From NCBI GenBank assembly GCA_964553245.1, contig CAZKJM010000002.1, forward strand, positions 5,878 through 69,877: DNA of 64,000 bases. The letters run 5' to 3'. The translations under genes were made by a program, and so were the position numbers. This DNA is from an uncultured Gammaproteobacteria bacterium (GTDB lineage Bacteria > Patescibacteriota > Microgenomatia > Levybacterales > UBA12049). The notes below the pieces were generated by a model, which ran no database searches, was not told where the DNA came from, and saw only the letters and a program-made list of their open reading frames with translations. Of the stretch, positions 213-11,537 are shown in pieces; positions within the stretch are counted from its first letter, which is position 1, and each line of letters opens with the position of its first letter.

Positions 213-1541
213 ATGAGACTGACAAAACTTATCAGCTTTAAAATATTTATTTTTTCGTTAATCATATTTTTATTCTCTTTTTGTTCTCATGAAAAAATAC
301 TATTACTCCCTTGTGAGTATTTTGGTTGGGATTGTTCGGTGAGTTGTTATTATGGCTATTGTGATGGAGGAGATTGTTGTACCTATCCAGGTGGTAGTGG
401 GGGATTTAGGTGTGTCAGCGGATGCTGTCAAGATATAGATGATTACGGCTATCCAAGTAGCGATTTGTATTGCTGCGGTGGTTATTGTGGTAGTTGCTCT
501 GGTTGTTCAGGTGGGGGTGGTGGTGGGGGTGGTGGTTGTACTCCGGACTGTGATGGAAAAGTTTGCGGAGACGATGGTTGTGGAGGAAGCTGTGGAACTT
601 GTACCTGTACTGGTGCAAACTGCAGAGGTTCTACTTGCAGCGGTGGTCAATGCATACAATATTGTGGAAGTTGTAGCGATACTTATACTCGCTGTTACGC
701 ATATTGGCACGAATCAAATAATCCTTCCTGTAATAAAACTTCTATGATTTCCGGTACAACCAGCTACGATATTAATTGTAGTTGTACATATTCAGGTTCT
801 TGTAATTGTCCTGATCCATACGAAAGTACGACTGTTTGGGGAGAATGTGGGGCTCCAGCAAGCTGTGCTCCGTCAACAACCACTACAACAACAACCAGTT
901 CTTCAACAACAACCAGTAGTGCTGGTTCAACCAGTTCTACAGCATCAACAACAAGTTTGTCCACAACTTCTACAACGAATCCCACAAGATATAGTTGTAA
1001 TCTTGCAACGGGTGATTGTTACACAAGCGCAGGAGGAAGTTATACTAATATTAATACGTGTAACAGTAATTGCGATGCTCATTTTGCCTGTAATCCTTCT
1101 ACCGGAAACTGCGATGCGAGTAGCGGCGGATCGTATACAAGTCGCTATTCTTGTGATGGAGATTGTGATGTTGCCACCACTACAACTACCACAACGTCCT
1201 CTACAACAACTACTGCGCCTGCTTCTACAACAACTTCTTCAACAACTCCCGAAACTTATACTGTTACCGGTCAGGTTTTTGTAGATGAAAATAAAAACGG
1301 AACAAAAGATACAGGGGAATCCTGTTACGAAGGATCAGTTGAGGTTAGTGTTGGGGGAGAAGCACATCAATTTAATAGCACTACTTCGTGTAATACCTAT
1401 TCTTATACAGTTTCCGGACAATGTCCTGTTGTTAATATTGTTCCGCCGACAAATTACGAATCAACCGGTTGGTATGGAACAGACGATTCAAGTAGTGAAA
1501 TCAGCGGCAGTGGTGGATCAGCTTACTTAACTTGTGACTAG
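213..1541 (+). CDS. Secreted Cys-rich modular surface protein. N-terminal hydrophobic signal or anchor, Gly9 run, CxxC-rich modules, two poly-Thr/Ser linkers, two ~30-aa Cys repeats (RYSCNLATGDC... and HFACNPSTGNC...), C-terminal SdrD-B/CnaB-like segment (YTVTGQVFVDENKNGTKDTGE)
   Basis: Long ORF. N-terminal hydrophobic stretch LISFKIFIFSLIIFLFSF. The CS(R)CSDTYxxC module is shared with ORFs 5424..7382 and 7574..8953. Thr-rich linkers typical of extracellular proteins. Promoter-like TTGACA motif upstream (126..131). Confidence 0.6.
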   Translation: MRLTKLISFKIFIFSLIIFLFSFCSHEKILLLPCEYFGWDCSVSCYYGYCDGGDCCTYPGGSGGFRCVSGCCQDIDDYGYPSSDLYCCGGYCGSCSGCSGGGGGGGGGCTPDCDGKVCGDDGCGGSCGTCTCTGANCRGSTCSGGQCIQYCGSCSDTYTRCYAYWHESNNPSCNKTSMISGTTSYDINCSCTYSGSCNCPDPYESTTVWGECGAPASCAPSTTTTTTTSSSTTTSSAGSTSSTASTTSLSTTSTTNPTRYSCNLATGDCYTSAGGSYTNINTCNSNCDAHFACNPSTGNCDASSGGSYTSRYSCDGDCDVATTTTTTTSSTTTTAPASTTTSSTTPETYTVTGQVFVDENKNGTKDTGESCYEGSVEVSVGGEAHQFNSTTSCNTYSYTVSGQCPVVNIVPPTNYESTGWYGTDDSSSEISGSGGSAYLTCD

Positions 1542-1592
1542 AATTTAAAAACTTAATATTACTTGACACTATTCTTTATGTATGGTATAACT

Positions 1593-1618
1593 ATCCTAGA
1601 GTAATAATACTCTAGGAT
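1593..1618. promoter_or_regulatory. Perfect 11-bp-arm palindrome between the -10 element and the start codon of the SLH gene, a candidate operator
   Basis: atcctagagta-ataa-tactctaggat. Preceded by TTGACA (1563..1568) at 17-nt spacing to TATAAC (1586..1591). Confidence 0.5.
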
Positions 1619-1623
1619 AAAAT

Positions 1624-2517
1624 ATGAACAAAGAAATAGGAGTTAAAGGTTTTAAAAAAGTAATCGCCGTTGCAGCAATGGTTCCTTCTATATTAATTGG
1701 AGCTTCGGAAGTAGCATCTGCTCAAGAATCTCAAGATAGTTCTAGGAATACAGACAAAATAGCAACAAGTGTTATAGGCGAAGCTTGGTCAAGCGAAAAT
1801 TCTCCATTTATAGATGTTTTTCCAAATGATCCTTATTATACTGGCATAACAGAGCTTAATAATCTTGGAGTTATCGAGGGTTACAAAAATGGAAGCATTC
1901 TGGAATTTAGACCAAACGATATGCTTAAAAGAGCTCAGTTTGCAAAAATAATCGTCAAAGCATTGAGTATTCCTGTTTCCGAACAAGATATCTCGCGTTT
2001 TAAAGACGTAGAAATAAGTGGTCCTGAATCTTTTTACCCTGATAATTATATAGCAGCAGCAGTAAGAGAAGGGATTATAAAAGGAAAAACAGAAGAAGAA
2101 TTTGGTCCATACGAAGATTTAACCAGAGACCAGACAGCGACTATGTTAATAAGGGCTTTGAGTAAATTGCCTGGATTACTTGATGAAATCCCTGATGGTT
2201 ATAATTCTAGTTTTAATGATGAATCAAATATTCATAGCGAAAATTTAAAAAAAGCTGAATATAATAGTTTGTTTTATGGAATAGATTTGGGTAAAAATGG
2301 CGGAACAAGAGGAGAAACAGCGCAAATTGTTTTTAATGCCTTAGAAATAATAAGTATAAATAAATGGATTAGCGACAACGGTTTAGATAAGTATGGGAAT
2401 CCTAATGGTACAAAGTATGCAGGAGGAAATCCTTTATTTAATGAAAAAACAGGCGAGGTTACAGGAAGATATGAATACATTTTAACTAAACATCCGGACA
2501 AGCCTTGGACTTCGTAA
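1624..2517 (+). CDS. S-layer-homology (SLH) domain protein with three SLH repeats and an N-terminal signal peptide
   Basis: Signal peptide VIAVAAMVPSILIGASEVASA. Three repeats match the SLH pattern: FPNDPYYTGITELNNLGVIEGYKNGSILEFRPNDMLKRAQFAKIIVKAL, FKDVEISGPESFYPDNYIAAAVREGIIKG...LTRDQTATMLIRAL and a third degenerate copy. Confidence 0.6.
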   Translation: MNKEIGVKGFKKVIAVAAMVPSILIGASEVASAQESQDSSRNTDKIATSVIGEAWSSENSPFIDVFPNDPYYTGITELNNLGVIEGYKNGSILEFRPNDMLKRAQFAKIIVKALSIPVSEQDISRFKDVEISGPESFYPDNYIAAAVREGIIKGKTEEEFGPYEDLTRDQTATMLIRALSKLPGLLDEIPDGYNSSFNDESNIHSENLKKAEYNSLFYGIDLGKNGGTRGETAQIVFNALEIISINKWISDNGLDKYGNPNGTKYAGGNPLFNEKTGEVTGRYEYILTKHPDKPWTS

Positions 2518-2578
2518 AAATAAACTCCTTATCTATTGACAATACTTTCTTAAGTAAGTTATGCTTTAGTTAGCCTTA

Positions 2579-4084
2579 ATGAAAAAGCTAATTAGGTTAT
2601 TAATAATATTAATTTTGCTATTTTTGATCCTCAGAAACGAAACGGTTGTTTATGCAGAATATTGTGAATCCAATACATATACTCTGTCTAGTTGCGAAAA
2701 TTATTTTTGTGACATAGACAATGATGAATATTGTAAGTATGATAGTACAACACCTTTAGGCGTAGATCTTTATAGGTGTTGTTGGGATATTAAATGTCCA
2801 AGTAGTTTATATACGTGTCCTAATGGAACACAGGTGCCTCGCCTAGAAAGATACAAATGCGAACCTCAGTGTCCGGCAACAACGACTTCTACAACAACAT
2901 CGTCAACAACAACAACGACTATTGCAGGAGGTGGAGGGGATTGTCTTGGCGAAGGAGAAGTTTGCTGGCTTGATGGACAGTGTTGTTCTGGAGACTGTAA
3001 TTGGTTTATTTGTACTACTCCAGCGACCACTACGACTACAACAACATCAACAACCACTTCTACTACTTCAACTATAACCACAACAACCTCCGCTGGTTCA
3101 ACTACAACCACAACAGCTACTCCCTCAACGAATTCTTTTGTTGTCAATTTTGGAATAAGCGCCGAAAATGAACCTTGGATTCAGTCAAAAGGATCGGACT
3201 TAAGACTTGAGGGTATAGTTTCCGGAGGCGGAATCGGAAGCGGAACAGGAGGATATAATTTTAGTATTCCCGAAAATCCGGAGACTACTCTTTGCGGTCC
3301 GGATCAAACTTATGCATCAATTCCTGGAACCGGCTCCCACGGAATAATTTTTTCCGGGGATTCTGATTATTCTTTTTGCGAGGGAGGAGTATGCCAGGAT
3401 CGGGCAAGCACTAATCAATGGGTGGTTGGAGGAGGAACGTATCAGGAAACTTATGCACCTGTTAACTCCGGCGGAAGATTAAAAACTTCTTATGAATATA
3501 TTAGCGCAAGAATAGCAGAAGCTGGAATTACCCCAACGGTTATTACGGATCTTAGTGTAGGCTTAGCAAACGGGGTTTATTTAGTAAATGGAGGATTAAC
3601 AACGCCAGCGAGCGGATATACATTCTCTACAGGAAAAAATTACGTAATTTTAGTTAATGGAGACTTAACAATTGCAGGAAATGTTTTGGTTCCAAACGGA
3701 TCTTCAGTTTCTTTTATAGTTAAAGGAAATATTATTGTAAACAACGATGTTGGAGAAAGTTTGCAAACAAGTTCTTGTACTATTCCAAGAACGCTTAATG
3801 CAGTTTCTACGGGATGCAATATAGAAGGATATTATTCCGCAAATGGCATATTTACAATGCTTGGAACAGGGGAATGCGCAACCGAAAAAAGACTGAATCT
3901 TGCAGGAAGTCTTGTTGTTAACGCAAATTTAGCAACCTCAAATGCTTTTGATAATCAAAGAGATCTTTGTGCAGGAAATGCAGTTTGTCCTGTTTTTACA
4001 ATTACCGAAAGACCTGATTTTCTTTTAAATGCACCTGATCTTATAAAACGCTCCAATTATATTTGGCAGGAAGTAGCACCGTAG
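2579..4084 (+). CDS. Secreted Cys-rich modular protein. Signal peptide, the CP(D/N)GTxVPxLxxYxCEPQCP module, poly-Thr linkers flanking a knottin-like 6-Cys module, and a C-terminal beta-helix-like Gly/Asn-rich domain
   Basis: Signal peptide LLIILILLFLILRNETVVYA. The YTCPNGTQVPRLERYKCEPQCP module is also present in ORF 5424..7382. CLGEGEVCWLDGQCCSGDCNWFIC has C-6-C-5-CC-3-C-4-C spacing. The C-terminal repeats GVYLVNGGL / VILVNGDLTIAGNV / FIVKGNIIVNNDV suggest a parallel beta-helix. Confidence 0.6.
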   Translation: MKKLIRLLIILILLFLILRNETVVYAEYCESNTYTLSSCENYFCDIDNDEYCKYDSTTPLGVDLYRCCWDIKCPSSLYTCPNGTQVPRLERYKCEPQCPATTTSTTTSSTTTTTIAGGGGDCLGEGEVCWLDGQCCSGDCNWFICTTPATTTTTTTSTTTSTTSTITTTTSAGSTTTTTATPSTNSFVVNFGISAENEPWIQSKGSDLRLEGIVSGGGIGSGTGGYNFSIPENPETTLCGPDQTYASIPGTGSHGIIFSGDSDYSFCEGGVCQDRASTNQWVVGGGTYQETYAPVNSGGRLKTSYEYISARIAEAGITPTVITDLSVGLANGVYLVNGGLTTPASGYTFSTGKNYVILVNGDLTIAGNVLVPNGSSVSFIVKGNIIVNNDVGESLQTSSCTIPRTLNAVSTGCNIEGYYSANGIFTMLGTGECATEKRLNLAGSLVVNANLATSNAFDNQRDLCAGNAVCPVFTITERPDFLLNAPDLIKRSNYIWQEVAP

Positions 4085-4097
4085 AAAACCAGCAATT

Positions 4098-4120
4098 TAG
4101 CTAATAGCCAATAGCTAATA
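4098..4120. repeat. Intergenic heptad array (TAGCNAA x3)
   Basis: tagctaa tagccaa tagctaa tag. Confidence 0.6.
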
Positions 4121-4214
4121 GTTTTTACCCCATGTACTATATATTAAAATGCCATAAGTTATTTCCTAATATGCTATTTTCTATGCGCCATAAGCTATAC
4201 GCTATTTTGCAAAT

Positions 4215-4595
4215 TTGACTTTTAAGATTAAAAATGGTAATTTCCGTAAATATATGTCAGGTAGATATGAACAAGAAAAAAGAAGAATAGAAGAAAGCGG
4301 AAGCCCGCTTGTTAAGCATTCCAGAAACCAACATAAAATAAAGTCGGGCATGGAGGGAGATATTAGAGTTTCTAGAACATTGTTTTTTAGCGATGATAAA
4401 GCATCGAGGGCAAGAGCAAGAAATGAATTAAGGTGTTTAATTACTGGTTTAATAATTTCACAAATGGAAAGATGTCTTAAGCATTTTACGGAAAGAGGAA
4501 GGGTAACACCAGAGGAGGCAGATTTTTTTAATAAACACAAAGGTGAAATTAGTGATTATGGAGATTTTCCGCGATTAAAACCAAGCTACGATTAA
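4215..4595 (+). CDS. Hypothetical small basic protein (126 aa) flanked on both sides by heptad-repeat intergenic arrays
   Basis: ORF only. Its GC content looks higher than its surroundings. There is an overlapping antisense ORF, so coding status is uncertain. Confidence 0.3.
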   Translation: MTFKIKNGNFRKYMSGRYEQEKRRIEESGSPLVKHSRNQHKIKSGMEGDIRVSRTLFFSDDKASRARARNELRCLITGLIISQMERCLKHFTERGRVTPEEADFFNKHKGEISDYGDFPRLKPSYD

Positions 4596-4699
4596 TATAG
4601 TATCAGCTTATAGTGCATAGCTTATGGGGAATGGTTAAGAATAGAATTTAGTTTTTTAGCTTAGCACATTGTTCCTATACGCTATTTGCTATATTGCCA

Positions 4700-5362
4700 T
4701 TATTGTGTTGTTCCTTCGGGGAAAGAAAAAGCTGCATTTACAGTTTTTCTAAGAACAGATTTTGATATGCCCTCCGCTGTTGTTTGTGCTTTTGGTTGGA
4801 ATCTAATTTTTGTTTCACCCTTAAAACCATAGACTTTGTTAAAAGTTAATGTTGCAATACTTCCGGTTCCGCTGATTCCTCTTTGTCCTAAGGCAATACC
4901 TACAGCATAAGTAATAGTTCCGTTTACAGGGTCAATTTTTTTAATTAATTCTGTCCATTCTTTATTTAAGTTTCCTAATTTTATATCCACGTTTGTTAAA
5001 GCCTTTGGATCATAAGTTAACTCAAATTGTACTGCGGTAATTTTATTATTGCCCGTTGTTACATTTGCATCGAGATTATATTCTTTTGCAAATGTAACTT
5101 CATTTGTTGTTTCGTATGGAGTATCTGCAAATCTGATTTCCGTTTGGGCATAGACTAGAGAATCCTTGGTAACTGAGGTTTGCTGTTTTTCTTCCTTTAC
5201 CGTAGACGAAGATACTGCTAAATAAACTAATCCGATTGTAGCTAGTACCAAAGCAATTATTAAAATTATTGTTTTTCCCGGCGGCAAATGCTGATTTAAT
5301 TTTTTCTGCACCGGTAAGGTGGTTTCCTGTGCATTTTTTGGTTGTTCTAAATTTTCTTCCAT
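4700..5362 (-). CDS. Membrane-anchored cohesin-domain protein with an N-terminal TM helix and a cohesin-like beta-sandwich
   Basis: TM helix TIILIIALVLATIGLVYLAV. ITAVQFELTYDPKAL...GTITYAVGIALGQRGISGTGSIATLTFNKV matches cohesin hallmarks, namely the F.F.YDP..L strand and the SGTG...I motif before the final strands. It sits adjacent to two dockerin-bearing genes. Confidence 0.65.
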   Translation of the reverse strand: MEENLEQPKNAQETTLPVQKKLNQHLPPGKTIILIIALVLATIGLVYLAVSSSTVKEEKQQTSVTKDSLVYAQTEIRFADTPYETTNEVTFAKEYNLDANVTTGNNKITAVQFELTYDPKALTNVDIKLGNLNKEWTELIKKIDPVNGTITYAVGIALGQRGISGTGSIATLTFNKVYGFKGETKIRFQPKAQTTAEGISKSVLRKTVNAAFSFPEGTTQ

Positions 5363-5423
5363 AGGGCAGTTATTTAATTATCAATTATCAATTATCACTT
5401 GTCAAATATTAATTTGTTTTATT

Positions 5424-7382
5424 TTATTCGCCTTGCTGGTTTGCCCAGTCGCGCATATATAAATTATAGTCGAATTCGTTTCTTGTACCGTTATCATCTA
5501 AATCTGCAATTATTTTAAATCTTTCATTGGAATTACATTTTGTAGCATCATAAGAATTAAATCCTTCTATGCAGCTTACTAAATCCGCATAGTCATTTAT
5601 GTCTAATTTGTTGTTTACATCCATATCTCCGGTAACTAATCTTACTATTGGTGTTTGATTGGTAGCTGATGTATTAACAGCCAGTATTCCCGGTATTCTT
5701 CGTTTTAAGTATCCTTCTGACCAAGTTCTTACAATATAGTTTCCGGATGTAAAACTTACTCCCAAGTCAACTGTTCCAACAAATTTTCCGTAATTTGCGC
5801 TTCCGCTTGCAGTTTGATAATCAGCATATCCTGTTTTTAATGTATTAAGCGGTTTATCATTTGTGTCGTAAAAATCAATATATATTTGCCTTGATGGTCT
5901 TGTTGGATTTAGAGTCGATCCGCATCCTTGTTGTCTTTGCGCTTCGGTGCAATTTATGTCATTTGGATTGGCATTGTCTCCGGTTGTTCCGATCCCATCT
6001 AATCCAAGTACAAGAGTTAATGTATTGTTAGAAGGTTTTGTTGTAGATGTGGTTGTGGTTATAGTACTTGTAGACGATGATGTTGTTGGAATTGTAGAAG
6101 ATGTTGCTCCCGTGGTTGTTGTCGTGGTTGTTATTTTTGTTGTTGTAGTTCTGCAGGATGATTTACAGCTTTCTTCGCTAAGATCTCCACAGACGCCATC
6201 AATTCTTCGGCAACTGTAATCACTTGTATAGCATGTCCAATATGGATCATGCAATCGTGGATAATCTTTGCATTGACATTGGTTATTTACGCATTCCTGA
6301 TCTGTCCTGCAGGCATTTATTTCGCAATCTACGTTTTCTCTATTGTTTTCTCTGCATTGTCTTCCACCTTCTTTTTGGGAATAGGTTACTGTTTTTGTTC
6401 CGGCTGTTGGTCCACAAAGTCCTGAATTTTTTGCTGTGCATTGAGTTTCTGTTACCTTATCTGTTGCATCGCAGTCGGGTATTGTTGTTGGGGTTGAACA
6501 ACTAGCTATTACTGATCCTGCTGTGCAAGTTGAGTCATAAGAATAACTTTTGTTTTCTAACTTTGTTTCGGGATCCATTCCCGTTCCGCACGCACCATTT
6601 ATGGGATCGTAAGTTACTCTACAATCTTTGTATGTGTCGCTACATCGTGAGCATTTATTATCCCCTGATGTTGGTTTGCAATAAGCCTCTACTTCTTCCG
6701 CTGTTTTTCCTTCGCAGGGTCCGGCAGGATAGTTTATACAGTCACCGCAAACAATCTGATTTTGCTCTGCATTACCTGGTATATTGTTTTTATCACAAAG
6801 TTCATTTTCAGCAACTGTCCAAGTTGTTCCACAGTATTTAGTTCCGTTACATTTATGGCACGAATTTATTCCCGTAGAGGTTTTAGGACATTGTGGTTCA
6901 CAATTATATTCTGCAAGAAGGGGCACAGATGTTCCATCGGGACATACATACATTGTAGCAGGACATTTAATATTTTCGCTTGTACTTGTTGGTTTGGTCT
7001 TAGAGCATTTTTTAGTTTCGGAGCCTTCGGTACATGTCCATTCCCACTTAGTTGATGTATCTTTTTCATTTCCTACAATACCTACAATGCAAGTAAATTC
7101 ATTGGTTGTCCCGCACTTGGCTGTTTTTACTTCGTTTATAATAGTTGTGGTTGTTGGAGCTGTACAACAAACCTTCCAATATTGACCAATAGAATCTCTT
7201 CCGGTAGTAATTGCACTACAAGTATATCCTTGAGATTTATAATTATTCCAAGCAATGCTAGCAGTTGTGTAATTGTGGTAAGTGATGCAATCGGCAAAAA
7301 CAGTTTTTGTAAATATTATTATTAATATTATTAAAAAAACTGAAGAAAATATAACAGAAGAAAAACGAATAAATTTATTCAT
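5424..7382 (-). CDS. Secreted Cys-rich multi-module protein with a poly-Thr linker and a C-terminal dockerin-like module
   Basis: Signal peptide FSSVIFSSVFLIILIIIFTKTVFA. Modules are shared with ORF1 and ORF 2579 (CPATMYVCPDGTSVPLLAEYNCEPQCP, CSRCSDTYKDC). The C-terminus has two EF-hand-like loops about 35 aa apart, GDMDVNNKLDINDYADLV and DLDDNGTRNEFDYNLYM, which is the dockerin duplicated Ca-binding segment pattern. Confidence 0.65.
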   Translation of the reverse strand: MNKFIRFSSVIFSSVFLIILIIIFTKTVFADCITYHNYTTASIAWNNYKSQGYTCSAITTGRDSIGQYWKVCCTAPTTTTIINEVKTAKCGTTNEFTCIVGIVGNEKDTSTKWEWTCTEGSETKKCSKTKPTSTSENIKCPATMYVCPDGTSVPLLAEYNCEPQCPKTSTGINSCHKCNGTKYCGTTWTVAENELCDKNNIPGNAEQNQIVCGDCINYPAGPCEGKTAEEVEAYCKPTSGDNKCSRCSDTYKDCRVTYDPINGACGTGMDPETKLENKSYSYDSTCTAGSVIASCSTPTTIPDCDATDKVTETQCTAKNSGLCGPTAGTKTVTYSQKEGGRQCRENNRENVDCEINACRTDQECVNNQCQCKDYPRLHDPYWTCYTSDYSCRRIDGVCGDLSEESCKSSCRTTTTKITTTTTTTGATSSTIPTTSSSTSTITTTTSTTKPSNNTLTLVLGLDGIGTTGDNANPNDINCTEAQRQQGCGSTLNPTRPSRQIYIDFYDTNDKPLNTLKTGYADYQTASGSANYGKFVGTVDLGVSFTSGNYIVRTWSEGYLKRRIPGILAVNTSATNQTPIVRLVTGDMDVNNKLDINDYADLVSCIEGFNSYDATKCNSNERFKIIADLDDNGTRNEFDYNLYMRDWANQQGE

Positions 7383-7444
7383 TATTTAAAATAATTTCTA
7401 TATGTTTAGATTACTAAATAGAAACAGGGGATGTCAAGAGAGAC

Positions 7445-7476
7445 AAATGGGAATTAGCGTTTAGCGTCTAGCAACT
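7445..7476. repeat. Intergenic heptad array (NNNTAGC x4)
   Basis: attagcg tttagcg tctagca actagcg. Confidence 0.65.
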
Positions 7477-7573
7477 AGCGTATGGTTAGTTTTAAATTTT
7501 TAAGCATTAAAAATTGATAATCAACTATTTATTAGCCCCTATTTGCCATAAGCTATATGCTGGTGGTTGCTAA

Positions 7574-8953
7574 TTATTCTCCTTGTCCGGTGGGGAGCTC
7601 TCTTATTAAAAGGTTGTAATCATATTCGTTTATTACGCTGTTGTCGTCTAAATCAGAAAGTTTTTGGTAATTTGTTCCGGATTTGCAGGTTTCGTTATTG
7701 TCTTTACTAAAGGTAGAGCAACTAACCAAAATATTGTAATCCCTTATATCCAAAAGATTATCTTCGTTAACGTTTCCGTTTATAAGCCTAGTTGTCGGAA
7801 CTGTGTTTTTTTGTCCGGATGTTATTACTTGGGTTTGAGAAGCAGTTTTTCTTAAGAACCCCGGAGATTTTACTTTTATTACATATGTTCCAGATGTTAT
7901 ATTTTCCAGTTCCGCTGAACCTTTGAATTTTCCTGTAGCTGAATCATAGGTTATTGTTGCTAATTTTTCGGAAACAGCAAAAGATCCTTGCTGGCTAATT
8001 ATTTCTATGTTTAGATTTCTGTCTTTTGTGTTTGGGTTTTGATTTGATCCGCAGCCTTCTTGTCTTTGGGTTTCTGTACAATTTTTATCTTCCGGATTCG
8101 GCGTGTCTCCTGATGTTCCGATTCCGTCAAGTCCGATTACAAATTCCAATATCGTTTTATTTGGGATAGTGGTGGTTGTAGAAGAAGACGCTGTGGTTGT
8201 TGTTGAACTTGCGGTAGTAGAAGTCGTGCTTTTAGTGGTTGTAGTTTTTGGGTGTGTTGTGGTGGTTGTTTTTGATTCGCATATTCCGGTTGATTCGTTA
8301 CAGGTTTGGCTTGAGGTACATTTATTTATACTGCAGGTTTCATAGACTCTTTCGTCGCTTTCTTTGCAATTGGTGGTTTCTTGAGCATTTGGGTCATTTG
8401 GGTCTTTATAGGCAGTGTACGAACATTGTTTCCTGCTGTTGTTTTTGCATTTTCCGTCTTCTGCCTGATCGGGATCGCATTCCGTACAATTTGTCGGTCT
8501 TGTATTACACTCGGGAAGAGTATTGCAAGAAGAGGTGTCTACTCCTTTTTCGGAGCAGTTTTTGGTAGCATATTGGCTGCTTCCGCTTGTTCCATCGCAA
8601 TTGCAATTTAATGTATATTTGGCATTCCAAGTATCTGTACATCCTTCTGTGCTTTCCCAATCAGCATTGCAATATATATATGTGTCGCTACAACGGCTGC
8701 ATTCTTTTTTTGTGCCAAAGTAATTGTTGCAGCAATGATATTTTTGAGGATTAGTGTTTTCAACCGGTTTACAAGTAGAGCCTTCTAGGATACAGCTTTC
8801 ATTGCAGTTTGAGCGATCATAATAGCTCCAACCGCATTGTTCAATAGAAGTAACTTTTGTTGTGGTTGTGGTAGCATTAATAACTTTTATAAATGCAGAG
8901 AGTCCAAATATTGAGAAAATAACAACAGTGAATAGTAATTTGAAAAATTTCAT
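7574..8953 (-). CDS. Secreted Cys-rich protein with a poly-Thr/Ser linker and a C-terminal dockerin-like module, paralog of 5424..7382
   Basis: The start was moved to the internal Met giving signal peptide MKFFKLLFTVVIFSIFGLSAFIKVINA; the ORF-track start at 9037 runs into a heptad-repeat array. The CSRCSDTYIYC module is present. The C-terminal domain is collinear with the paralog (VIGLDGIGTSGD...CTETQRQEGCGS...) and ends with NVNEDNLLDIRDYNILV ... DLDDNSVINEYDYNLLI. Confidence 0.6.
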   Translation of the reverse strand: MKFFKLLFTVVIFSIFGLSAFIKVINATTTTTKVTSIEQCGWSYYDRSNCNESCILEGSTCKPVENTNPQKYHCCNNYFGTKKECSRCSDTYIYCNADWESTEGCTDTWNAKYTLNCNCDGTSGSSQYATKNCSEKGVDTSSCNTLPECNTRPTNCTECDPDQAEDGKCKNNSRKQCSYTAYKDPNDPNAQETTNCKESDERVYETCSINKCTSSQTCNESTGICESKTTTTTHPKTTTTKSTTSTTASSTTTTASSSTTTTIPNKTILEFVIGLDGIGTSGDTPNPEDKNCTETQRQEGCGSNQNPNTKDRNLNIEIISQQGSFAVSEKLATITYDSATGKFKGSAELENITSGTYVIKVKSPGFLRKTASQTQVITSGQKNTVPTTRLINGNVNEDNLLDIRDYNILVSCSTFSKDNNETCKSGTNYQKLSDLDDNSVINEYDYNLLIRELPTGQGE

Positions 8954-9020
8954 AGCTATTTTGAGCATAGTAAAGACAAACAGAGAAGTCAATATGGCAT
9001 AAAGCATATAGTTGAAAAAC

Positions 9021-9055
9021 CATTTGCCATGTGCCATAAGCTAAGAAGCTAATGG
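9021..9055. repeat. Intergenic heptad array (CATNNGC-like x5)
   Basis: catttgc catgtgc cataagc taagaag ctaatgg. Confidence 0.6.
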
Positions 9056-11177: not shown

Positions 11178-11537
11178 ATGGCGTTTAGATTTGAAGAATT
11201 GGAAATTTGGAAAGCCTCGAATAATTACATTAAGGATATTTATCTCATAACAAAAAAATTTCCAAAAGAAGAAGCATTTGCATTAATAAGTCAATTAAAA
11301 AGGGCTGCTGGTTCAGTTTCTGCGAACATTGCCGAGGGATCCGGAAGTTCTTCAAAAAAAGATTTTTCCCATTACCTTGATATATCAATAAAATCAATTT
11401 TTGAGACAGTTTCCCATCTTTATTTGGCGAAAGAGCAGAAATATATCACAGAACGTGATAGAATATGTCTTTACGAACAGGCAGAAATTCTTGTAAAAAG
11501 AATAAATTCATTTAAAAAATGGTTAAACAAAAAATAA
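11178..11537 (+). CDS. Four-helix-bundle protein (23S rRNA intervening-sequence protein family)
   Basis: FEELEIWKASNNYIKDIYLITKKFPKEEAFALISQLKRAAGSVSANIAEGSG matches the E.W..A..L....Y.....FP..E...L.SQL.RAA.S...NIAEG signature of this family. Heptad-repeat arrays flank it on both sides. Confidence 0.7.
   Translation: MAFRFEELEIWKASNNYIKDIYLITKKFPKEEAFALISQLKRAAGSVSANIAEGSGSSSKKDFSHYLDISIKSIFETVSHLYLAKEQKYITERDRICLYEQAEILVKRINSFKKWLNKK

Follow-up and report, generated by a model that had tools for sequence, protein, structure and literature searches.

Attachment to other cells is the presumed way of life of ultra-small Patescibacteria, and the means by which they anchor proteins at their surface and recognise a partner are barely understood. 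The first 9 kb of a 64,000-nt stretch of contig CAZKJM010000002.1 (this whole stretch is referred to below as the window) raises the question in concrete form, as it holds four large open reading frames (ORFs), P1 to P4, for cysteine-rich proteins with threonine/serine linkers: what would hold such proteins on the cell, and what do the four have in common? A sequence-only reading of the window had answered that they are four paralogs built from shuffled modules, and had noted that they lie beside the only SLH (S-layer anchoring) gene of the window. We conclude, with a probability of about 0.7, that the locus is a non-cellulosomal, membrane-anchored cohesin-dockerin surface-display system of a Levybacteria-like bacterium of the Patescibacteria (candidate phyla radiation, CPR). 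Two of the four proteins, P3 and P4, end in an X-module-dockerin dyad (XDoc), and the probable partner of this dyad, judged by domain content and gene position, is the single cohesin of a small protein, COH, whose gene directly downstream of P3 had been overlooked. The genes concerned are as follows.

4700..5362, minus strand: COH, cohesin anchor protein, 220 aa; N-terminal tail of ~31 aa plus hydrophobic helix 5210-5362, short linker, single cohesin domain 4703-5167
5376..5414, minus strand: 7-bp repeat AATTATC x5.6 between P3 and COH
5424..7382, minus strand: P3, XDoc cargo protein, 652 aa; signal peptide 7293-7382; Cys-rich modules 6162-7292, including module C 6885-6974 and module B 6516-6659; poly-Thr/Ser stalk 6030-6161; X-module-dockerin 5427-6029
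7574..9037, minus strand: P4, XDoc cargo protein, 487 aa, probable true start M29 at 8953; signal peptide 8873-8953; Cys-rich modules 8279-8845, including module A 8729-8842 and the CSRCSDTY module B 8576-8707; poly-Thr/Ser stalk 8162-8278; X-module-dockerin 7577-8161

The C-terminal domain of P3 and P4

The C-terminal ~195-200 aa of P3 and P4 form a common domain (39% identity, E 1e-39); a dockerin-containing C-terminus common to these two proteins had been recognised from the sequence, and this was correct except for its size, which had been put at roughly 100 aa. A profile built from six of these domains (alignment A1) matches, among PDB sequences, the CipA XDoc chain 2b59_B (E 3.2e-6) and then 3kcp, 5g5d, 4wi0 and 4u3s, all of which represent the X-module and type II dockerin of CipA and Acetivibrio scaffoldins. 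Both calcium loops fit D-x-D/N-x-N-x-x-x-D/N-x-x-D, in P3 (DMDVNNKLDIND and DLDDNGTRNEFD) as in P4 (NVNEDNLLDIRD and DLDDNSVINEYD), the columns of the tandem F-hand loops (D/N at 1, 3, 5, 9 and 12) are invariant or near-invariant in alignments A1 and A2, and each loop is followed by a helix, predicted where it is expected. The same alignments contain an invariant Cys pair, C153/C165, between the two dockerin repeats. The AlphaFold model of the domain (27-sequence alignment; pLDDT 84.9, pTM 0.81) comprises an Ig-like beta-sandwich X-module, directly N-terminal of the dockerin and packed against it, followed by four short helical segments (144-151, 162-167, 169-174 and 185-195); a Foldseek search with this model returned no significant match. 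In addition, Pfam Dockerin_1 is significant (E<=1e-3, best 1e-23) in 34 of 73 members of the C-terminal-domain family. The C-terminal domain of P3 and P4 is an X-module-dockerin dyad. A type IX secretion system (T9SS) C-terminal sorting domain was rejected, the match to Por_Secre_tail (E 0.0086) being below threshold and reflecting the beta-sandwich only.

The XDoc family is large: a complete HMMER scan of 1.84 billion cluster representatives retrieved 2469 proteins at E<1e-3, of which 1805 lie below 1e-10 and 736 below 1e-30, while a search with full-length P3 gave 5 proteins only, poly-Thr words having swamped the candidate list. The domain stands nearly always at the C-terminus, in proteins of 200-1440 aa whose passengers include CBM4_9, VWA, fn3, SdrD_B, cohesin, GH5, GH26, CBM96 and esterases, GH or CBM domains being present in just a minority of members. 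A Cys content of at least 4% outside the last 195 residues was found in ~38% of the top 141 XDoc proteins longer than 300 aa, and a content of at least 4% in 22 of 41 complete cassette cargos. The XDoc is a generic plug or tag on varied cargo.

At least 25 of 151 XDoc-family proteins (among them P0004, P0015-P0017 and P0021) carry a conserved N-terminus of the form IIAAAIPLTV(3-4 aa)Q(Q/K)QQE(T/I)RQ(R/Q)A, which is also found on proteins that combine a cohesin with an XDoc (L005 2641-3891, L007 7836-9047 and L008 9296-10573), and in place of which P3 and P4 of the window have ordinary signal peptides. This IPLTV...QQQETRQRA N-terminus resembles a dedicated Patescibacteria signal for membrane anchoring or cleavage.

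The cohesin protein and its pairing with XDoc genes

The cohesin domain of COH scores 37.9 bits with Pfam PF00963, whose cut-off is 24.1 (E 2.5e-9); the cohesin family profile matches, in the PDB, cellulosomal cohesins only (best 4ums_A at E 1e-3), and the COH orthologues in loci L013 and L014 are annotated PF00963. The top 19-residue Kyte-Doolittle segment before the cohesin domain scores 3.0. A sigma-70-like site (TTGACA-17-GATAAT, by consensus only), the best in the region, overlaps the AATTATC repeat at 5376..5414 and is possibly the promoter of COH itself; promoter-like sites show no overall enrichment.

The gene pair is conserved. A genome scan seeded on the XDoc yielded 10 loci, nine of them from metagenome-assembled genomes (MAGs) of Levybacteria or the 'Patescibacteria group' and one from a 5.7-kb contig binned as Gammaproteobacteria. 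A cohesin gene lies directly downstream of the XDoc gene in the window and in L013, L003, L004, L010 and L012, and cohesin and XDoc are fused in a single protein (anchor-cohesin-linker-XDoc) in L005 (two proteins), L007 and L008. A metagenome scan seeded on the cohesin alone, for which a five-sequence alignment was used as the eight-cohesin alignment (A6) was too divergent, yielded 79 loci, of which those with at least 900 nt upstream of the cohesin gene were testable (n=61). An XDoc was present in 52 of the 61 (85%), in 51 cases as a same-strand ORF ending -34 to +179 nt upstream and in one as a fusion, and the identifiable relatives are all Levybacteria/Patescibacteria. A hydrophobic N-terminal 19-mer was found in 80 of 80 complete unfused cohesin ORFs, which have a median length of 201 aa and extend ~12 residues past the domain.

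The contig binned as 'uncultured Gammaproteobacteria' (L009, CAYMDS010000069.1), which encodes an XDoc protein, is probably mis-binned, as every other XDoc match is from Patescibacteria. Two loci, L065 (1964-6459) and L077 (1698-6468), contain a tandem duplication of the whole cassette, i.e. of a Cys-rich XDoc cargo followed by a cohesin. The cohesins of these double cassettes are 89-98% identical, the XDocs only 68-74%; the idea that they form orthogonal plug-socket pairs was rejected on account of the near-identical cohesins, which indicate recent duplications.

Modules and composition of P1 to P4

The genes of the two remaining Cys-rich proteins lie on the other strand, at lower coordinates than COH, with the SLH gene between them.

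213..1541, plus strand: P1, mosaic, secreted or anchored, without dockerin, 442 aa; hydrophobic N-terminus 213-287; Cys/Gly-rich region 288-866, containing a CxPxCxGKxCGxDGCGGxCGxC repeat 537-653 and module B 663-791; linker 867-986; duplicated 4-Cys module 987-1169; linker 1170-1256; SdrD-B-like domain 1257-1538
1624..2517, plus strand: SLH-domain protein, 297 aa, no Cys
2579..4084, plus strand: P2, secreted mosaic without dockerin, 501 aa; signal peptide 2579-2656; A-like Cys module 2657-2785; module C 2786-2875; Thr linker 2876-2926; knottin-like 6-Cys module 2927-3016; Thr linker 3017-3130; beta-solenoid (DUF7305/DUF3494/ComZ-like) 3131-4081

The four ORFs are present as first described; that of P4 extends to 9037, and the start noted earlier, at 8953 (M29), is plausible and gives a classical signal peptide (MKFFKLLFTVVIFSIFGLSAFIKVINA, followed by TTTT). 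Signal peptides, assigned by eye, are clear in P2 (cleavage between VYA and E), P3 (between VFA and D) and P4; all four had been credited with one, and the hydrophobic N-terminus of P1 has, by eye, no clean cleavage site or lipobox. Cys makes up 10.6% of P1, 4.8% of P2, 6.7% of P3 and 5.7% of P4 (0% in the SLH protein and COH), and Thr 14-16% of each of the four; no further gene with this combination of Cys-richness and Thr/Ser runs was found among ORFs of at least 120 aa in the greedy gene map of the window, the other matches of the Cys/Thr filter being short ORFs, some of them overlapping (shadow) frames. Segmentation placed Thr/Ser linkers of 18-44 residues between the Cys-rich blocks and the C-terminal domains, together with two 9-residue Thr-rich runs in P4. 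The Cys counts of the mature proteins are even (P3 44, P4 28, P2 24 and P1 46, Cys24 of the hydrophobic N-terminus not counted), which would fit full disulfide pairing.

The small modules are shared far beyond chance. The motif C..CS[DN].Y, which marks the start of module B (~40 aa, six Cys), is found in P1, P3 and P4; across 153 family proteins it was counted 11 times, in 9 of them, as compared to 0.11 expected from shuffled sequences; the module A motif, C-x-C-x-C-x-C-x-(Y/W)-x-CC, occurs 10 times against 0.17 expected. The motifs are thus ~60-100x commoner than in shuffled sequences, and control searches of a reversed database gave 0 matches. A module B profile built from outside proteins only matches P4 (E 3.5e-17) and P3 (E 3.4e-10) and does not find the CSxCSDTY segment of P1, which was recovered, at E 8e-4, only once P3 and P4 had been added to the profile; of the three proteins to which this module had been ascribed, P3 and P4 are secure and the membership of P1 is weaker. 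Module C (YxCP(D/N)GT...CEPQCP), ascribed to two proteins, is indeed present in P2 (aa 70-99) and P3 (aa 137-166), which are 63% identical there (BLASTP E 3e-10 with SEG on). Nucleotide identity of the two copies is 68% and third codon positions are just 50% identical, which rules out recent gene conversion; the resemblance is an old paralogy maintained by selection. The outside-protein profile of module A matches P4 (1.4e-7) and none of P1, P2 and P3, for which reason sharing of this module by all four proteins is not claimed. In single-module jackhmmer searches among the window proteins the only links are module C (P2-P3) and the internal duplication of a four-Cys module in P1, and the likenesses seen by eye for modules A (P2/P3/P1), D (P3), E (P4) and H are mostly without significance.

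The description of the four as paralogs is therefore overstated. P3 and P4, having a common architecture, are strictly the only paralogs, and P1 and P2 are different proteins that borrow single modules of 30-45 aa, the former with an SdrD-B tail and the latter with a beta-solenoid-like tail; neither carries a dockerin. The SdrD-B-like segment noted in P1 was upheld: the family profile of its C-terminus (A4) matches SdrD 10ps_A at 1.4e-20 and 4jdz at 1.5e-10, Pfam SdrD_B matches 17 of 17 family members while P1 by itself stays below the cut-off (E 0.0014, 19.3 against 29.7 bits), and the calcium motif D-x-N-x-N-G-x-x-D of SdrD B is present (VFVDENKNGTKDTGE), so that the segment is an SdrD B-like, CnaB-type beta-sandwich. 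Residues 109-147 of P1 (537-653) form one copy of a CxPxCxGKxCGxDGCGGxCGxC..G..C..G.C repeat which proteins of Myxococcota, Nanoarchaeota and other metagenomic lineages carry in tandem arrays and which is a very widely dispersed Cys-rich mini-domain; a search with the P1 N-terminus found no P1-like protein, its matches being to this repeat only. P2 contains, at aa 117-146 (2927-3016), a 30-aa module with the knottin framework C-x6-C-x5-CC-x3-C-x4-C, whose matches to Pfam UPF0506 (20.1 against 23.2), Conotoxin_I2 and Toxin_29 are all below the cut-offs (E 9e-4 to 0.06) and which is kept in L013. The C-terminus of P2 is like a beta-solenoid of the ComZ/ice-binding type (DUF7305/DUF3494), and its profile has no match among PDB sequences.

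Comparison with syntenic loci

A close relative of the locus is on L013, a 14.9-kb contig from another sample, in which the gene order is the same from hisS through rpsB to the P1 orthologue. Housekeeping proteins are 85-96% identical between window and L013 (86-96% by BLASTP, with rpsB at 84.6% in the codon alignment) and the cohesin is 88.6% identical. The Cys-rich proteins are conserved in parts only. The P2 orthologue is 89.5% identical over its last 373 aa and lacks the first ~130 aa (signal peptide, module A, module C and linker), a different signal peptide leading directly into the knottin-like module; the P3 orthologue is 75% identical from aa 172, with aa ~77-170 swapped for other modules, and the DNA of its signal peptide and upstream region (window 7357-7439) is 91.6% identical; the P4 orthologue, g587, is 72% identical from aa 115 and contains a tandem pair of B modules along with two Cys modules of other kinds; that of P1 is 89% identical over the last 90 aa, its SdrD-B domain being preceded by an additional beta-sandwich. 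It is at the Thr/Gly linkers that similarity begins or ends. N-terminal modules are replaced between orthologues at linker boundaries, and the mosaics of shuffled disulfide-type modules with Thr/Ser linkers that had been proposed for the window are borne out by this relative.

A further difference is at 1544-2968, a 1.4-kb segment missing from L013, in which 87 bp lie between the orthologues of P1 and P2. The segment comprises the SLH gene and the first 130 codons of P2, i.e. the signal peptide and first two modules, and is a single insertion or replacement event joining the SLH gene and the 5′ end of P2. The SLH domain itself is unequivocal (Pfam E 7.8e-17), and the statement that this is the only SLH gene in the window was substantiated, as jackhmmer seeded on it found no other such ORF in the window or in the fetched loci; phmmer and jackhmmer with the same seed found no SLH ORF in L003-L012. 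As the SLH gene is missing from L013 together with the N-terminus of P2, and was not found in L003-L012, it does not count among the conserved members of the system. A perfect hairpin, CCTAGAGTA-ATAA-TACTCTAGG, lies at ~1592-1616, immediately 5′ of the SLH start.

The comparison across related genomes that had been proposed as a check was extended to other loci, and synteny was found in L013, L003, L004 and L010, with variation in copy number and module content. XDoc genes are present in two copies in the window and two in L013, and in one copy each, beside rpsB, in L003, L004 and L010; P2-like genes occupy this locus in L004 and L010 as well, and in L008 immediately precede the cohesin-XDoc fusion. 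The synteny excludes assembly chimerism.

Between window and L013 the ratio of nonsynonymous to synonymous substitution rates (dN/dS) was 0.21 in the head of P3 and 0.15 in that of P4, as compared to 0.07 and 0.15 in the respective XDocs, 0.06 in the cohesin ectodomain, 0.05 in the P2 solenoid and 0.02-0.19 in housekeeping genes, all of these being rough values as dS is near saturation (0.6-1.3). Pervasive positive selection was not detected in this comparison, dN/dS being below 0.25 in the Cys-rich heads, XDocs, cohesin and solenoid, so that diversification proceeds by cassette exchange plus relaxed constraint. The characterisation of the locus as rapidly diversifying therefore stands for module content and not for point substitution, where only relaxed purifying selection is seen (0.15-0.21 in the Cys-rich parts).

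Discussion

The pairing of XDoc and cohesin genes, taken with the architecture of their products, suggests the following mode of action. P3 and P4 would be exported by Sec, and their C-terminal XDoc would plug, in a calcium-dependent manner, into the single cohesin of the 220-aa COH, which would itself be kept in the cytoplasmic membrane by its N-terminal hydrophobic helix. A poly-Thr/Ser stalk of 40-45 residues, probably O-glycosylated, would extend the N-terminal array of disulfide-bonded modules away from the membrane, and these small modules would serve as variable 'heads', most likely binding or adhesion units, that are swapped as cassettes between strains at linker boundaries while plug, socket and signal peptide are kept. 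The distinction between variable heads and a conserved plug derives from the comparison with L013 and from the dN/dS of the heads (0.21 and 0.15) as compared to that of the P3 XDoc (0.07) and the cohesin (0.06). P1 and P2 would draw on the same pool of mini-modules and end in an SdrD-B domain or a ComZ/ice-binding-type beta-solenoid; they are not predicted to use the cohesin.

Several observations weigh against this display system. Pfam Dockerin_1 scores only 12.7 bits on P4, against a cut-off of 22.9, and does not match P3. The XDocs of P3 and P4 are 39-40% identical and yet would share a single cohesin, so that the cohesin for one of the two may be encoded at another site of the genome. The hydrophobic segment of COH could be a cleaved signal peptide (cleavage between AVS and S is possible), in which case the cohesin would be released. 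The heads of P3 and P4 have no match to a known adhesin or ligand-binding family, and the function given to them is a guess. The dN/dS values, with dS near saturation, are rough.

Four alternatives were considered. It is unlikely that P1-P4 are freely secreted Cys-rich effectors, such as toxin-, bacteriocin- or inhibitor-like knottin arrays, in which the dockerin-like tail would serve folding, calcium binding or oligomerisation instead of anchoring. Such a role would accord with the knottin-type framework of P2 and its weak likeness to UPF0506 and to conotoxin and spider-toxin families (E 9e-4 to 0.06), with the lack of a dockerin in P1 and P2 and with heads that match no adhesin family. However, these toxin-family matches are all below curated cut-offs, long Thr stalks between head and plug suit display more than release, and the adjacency of XDoc and cohesin in 85% of independently seeded loci, together with the natural fusions, is hard to explain without direct interaction.

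A two-component envelope layer is improbable. Here cargo and cohesin would form a membrane stalk and a glycosylated canopy, comparable to archaeal SlaB/SlaA, with the heads as the outermost coat and not as specific adhesins, and the cohesin-XDoc fusions of relatives would polymerise head to tail. The one-to-one gene cassette, frequently beside core genes (rpsB-tsf-frr), is compatible with such a layer, as are the Thr-rich stalks and the fusions, which with one cohesin and one XDoc could chain. A Foldseek hit to SlaB with the X-module (prob 0.66, E 0.04) points the same way but is not significant, and the heads, being small, heterogeneous and exchanged between strains, are unlike lattice-forming S-layer proteins.

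That the locus is a miniature cellulosome for polysaccharide breakdown, with P3 and P4 as carbohydrate-binding or catalytic subunits, is very improbable. The nearest solved relatives are cellulosomal and some members of the XDoc family carry CBM4_9, GH5, GH26, CBM96 or esterase domains; in Pfam and NCBIfam searches, however, neither P3 nor P4 showed a catalytic or CBM domain at E<=1, roughly half of the cassette cargos are mosaics that are rich in Cys and lack enzyme domains, and each anchor (median 201 aa) has one cohesin, no scaffoldin with several cohesins or a CBM being present. The chance that the shared motifs are compositional coincidences or the locus an assembly chimera is next to nil, since the richness of P1-P4 in Cys, Thr, Ser and Gly, the few cross-matches between window proteins in single-module jackhmmer and the failure of the module A profile to find P2 are outweighed by motif counts ~60-100x above shuffles with empty reversed-database controls, by the P3/P4 tail (E 1e-39) and the P2/P3 module (E 3e-10 despite SEG masking), and by synteny of the entire locus in at least four other assemblies (L013, L003, L004 and L010), so that this reading is refuted.

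The anchoring logic of the proposed display system is that of the type II cohesin-XDoc interaction of the Clostridium thermocellum cellulosome (the CipA XDoc with SdbA/ScaC-type cohesins; 2B59, 3KCP and 5G5D), the likeness being one of sequence and fold for the XDoc and of sequence for the cohesin. The differences are considerable: sequence identity is only 14-15% and the host belongs to the Patescibacteria; in place of an SLH-anchored scaffoldin the anchor is a protein of ~200 aa with one cohesin and an N-terminal membrane helix; in place of an enzyme-bearing scaffoldin the cargo consists of non-catalytic, Cys-rich mini-modules arrayed on a poly-Thr stalk; and between the dockerin repeats lies the conserved Cys pair C153/C165, which is not known as a feature of cellulosomal dockerins. 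Non-cellulosomal cohesin and dockerin modules are reportedly scattered through Bacteria and Archaea, according to the 2009 survey of Peer and colleagues. The window resembles these in having single cohesins and dockerins in an organism without a cellulosome, where another kind of protein-protein assembly is presumed, and differs from them in its fixed, adjacent two-gene cassette (52/61), in the hundreds of XDoc cargo clusters and in the defined architecture of the anchor. Similarly, the MSCRAMM adhesins of Gram-positive bacteria, such as SdrD, follow a logic of head, stalk and anchor, and SdrD-B-like domains are found in P1 and many relatives. Whereas an MSCRAMM comprises a ligand-binding head, B-repeats, a Ser-Asp stalk and a wall anchor, the proteins described here have a poly-Thr stalk and no LPXTG/sortase anchor, and P3 and P4 would be anchored by a non-covalent C-terminal cohesin-dockerin joint.

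Within the CPR, large Cys-rich, strain-variable secreted proteins averaging ~1,650 aa and weakly similar to Cys-rich repeats of Myxococcus have been described in Peribacteria, where they were noted as a main source of strain variation and have been proposed to act in attachment, no anchoring mechanism being given (Anantharaman et al. 2016, PMC4736985). P1-P4 are likewise secreted and very Cys-rich, and P1 carries the same kind of widespread repeat, but they are shorter (440-650 aa) and consist of identifiable modules of 30-70 aa, and two of them would be tied to a cohesin anchor. A dockerin-domain envelope protein has been found essential in a Saccharibacterium (PMC10633639). No description of the XDoc-to-cohesin cassette in Patescibacteria/CPR was found in the searchable literature, which is weak evidence as most subscription journals lie outside it.

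If true, a conserved socket-plug cassette with strain-variable heads would provide a concrete and testable anchoring mechanism for these organisms, would make their surface repertoire findable in any genome by means of one plug profile and one socket profile, and would constitute a compact natural display scaffold. Strain variation of these genes would be explained by the exchange of whole modules at the Thr-linker joints, with plug, socket and export signal fixed. A further and tentative possibility is that the XDoc-cohesin cassette represents a general display system of Microgenomates-type Patescibacteria, undescribed in the searchable literature, in which one socket would serve a large, fast-swapping cargo repertoire including hypervariable heads for host or substrate recognition by episymbionts, cohesin-XDoc fusions would form extended chains and the IPLTV...QQQETRQRA N-terminus would act as a dedicated sorting signal.

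Other features of the region

Between P2 and COH lies one further small ORF.

4215..4595, plus strand: orf126, small basic protein, 126 aa

It has no family match, and its position is kept in L013, where the protein is 47% identical by BLASTP and 54% in the codon alignment, with a dN/dS of 0.4 (window against L013), while its neighbours are 88-90% identical; orf126 is a rapidly evolving gene or else a marginal ORF. Beyond P4, rpsB-tsf-frr-rseP are transcribed divergently from it. Between frr and rseP, a gene at 11178-11537 (plus strand) encodes a four-helix protein of the 23S-rRNA-intervening-sequence type (PF05635 in L013); as related copies are found at other positions in L004, L005 and L010, it looks like a mobile small gene.

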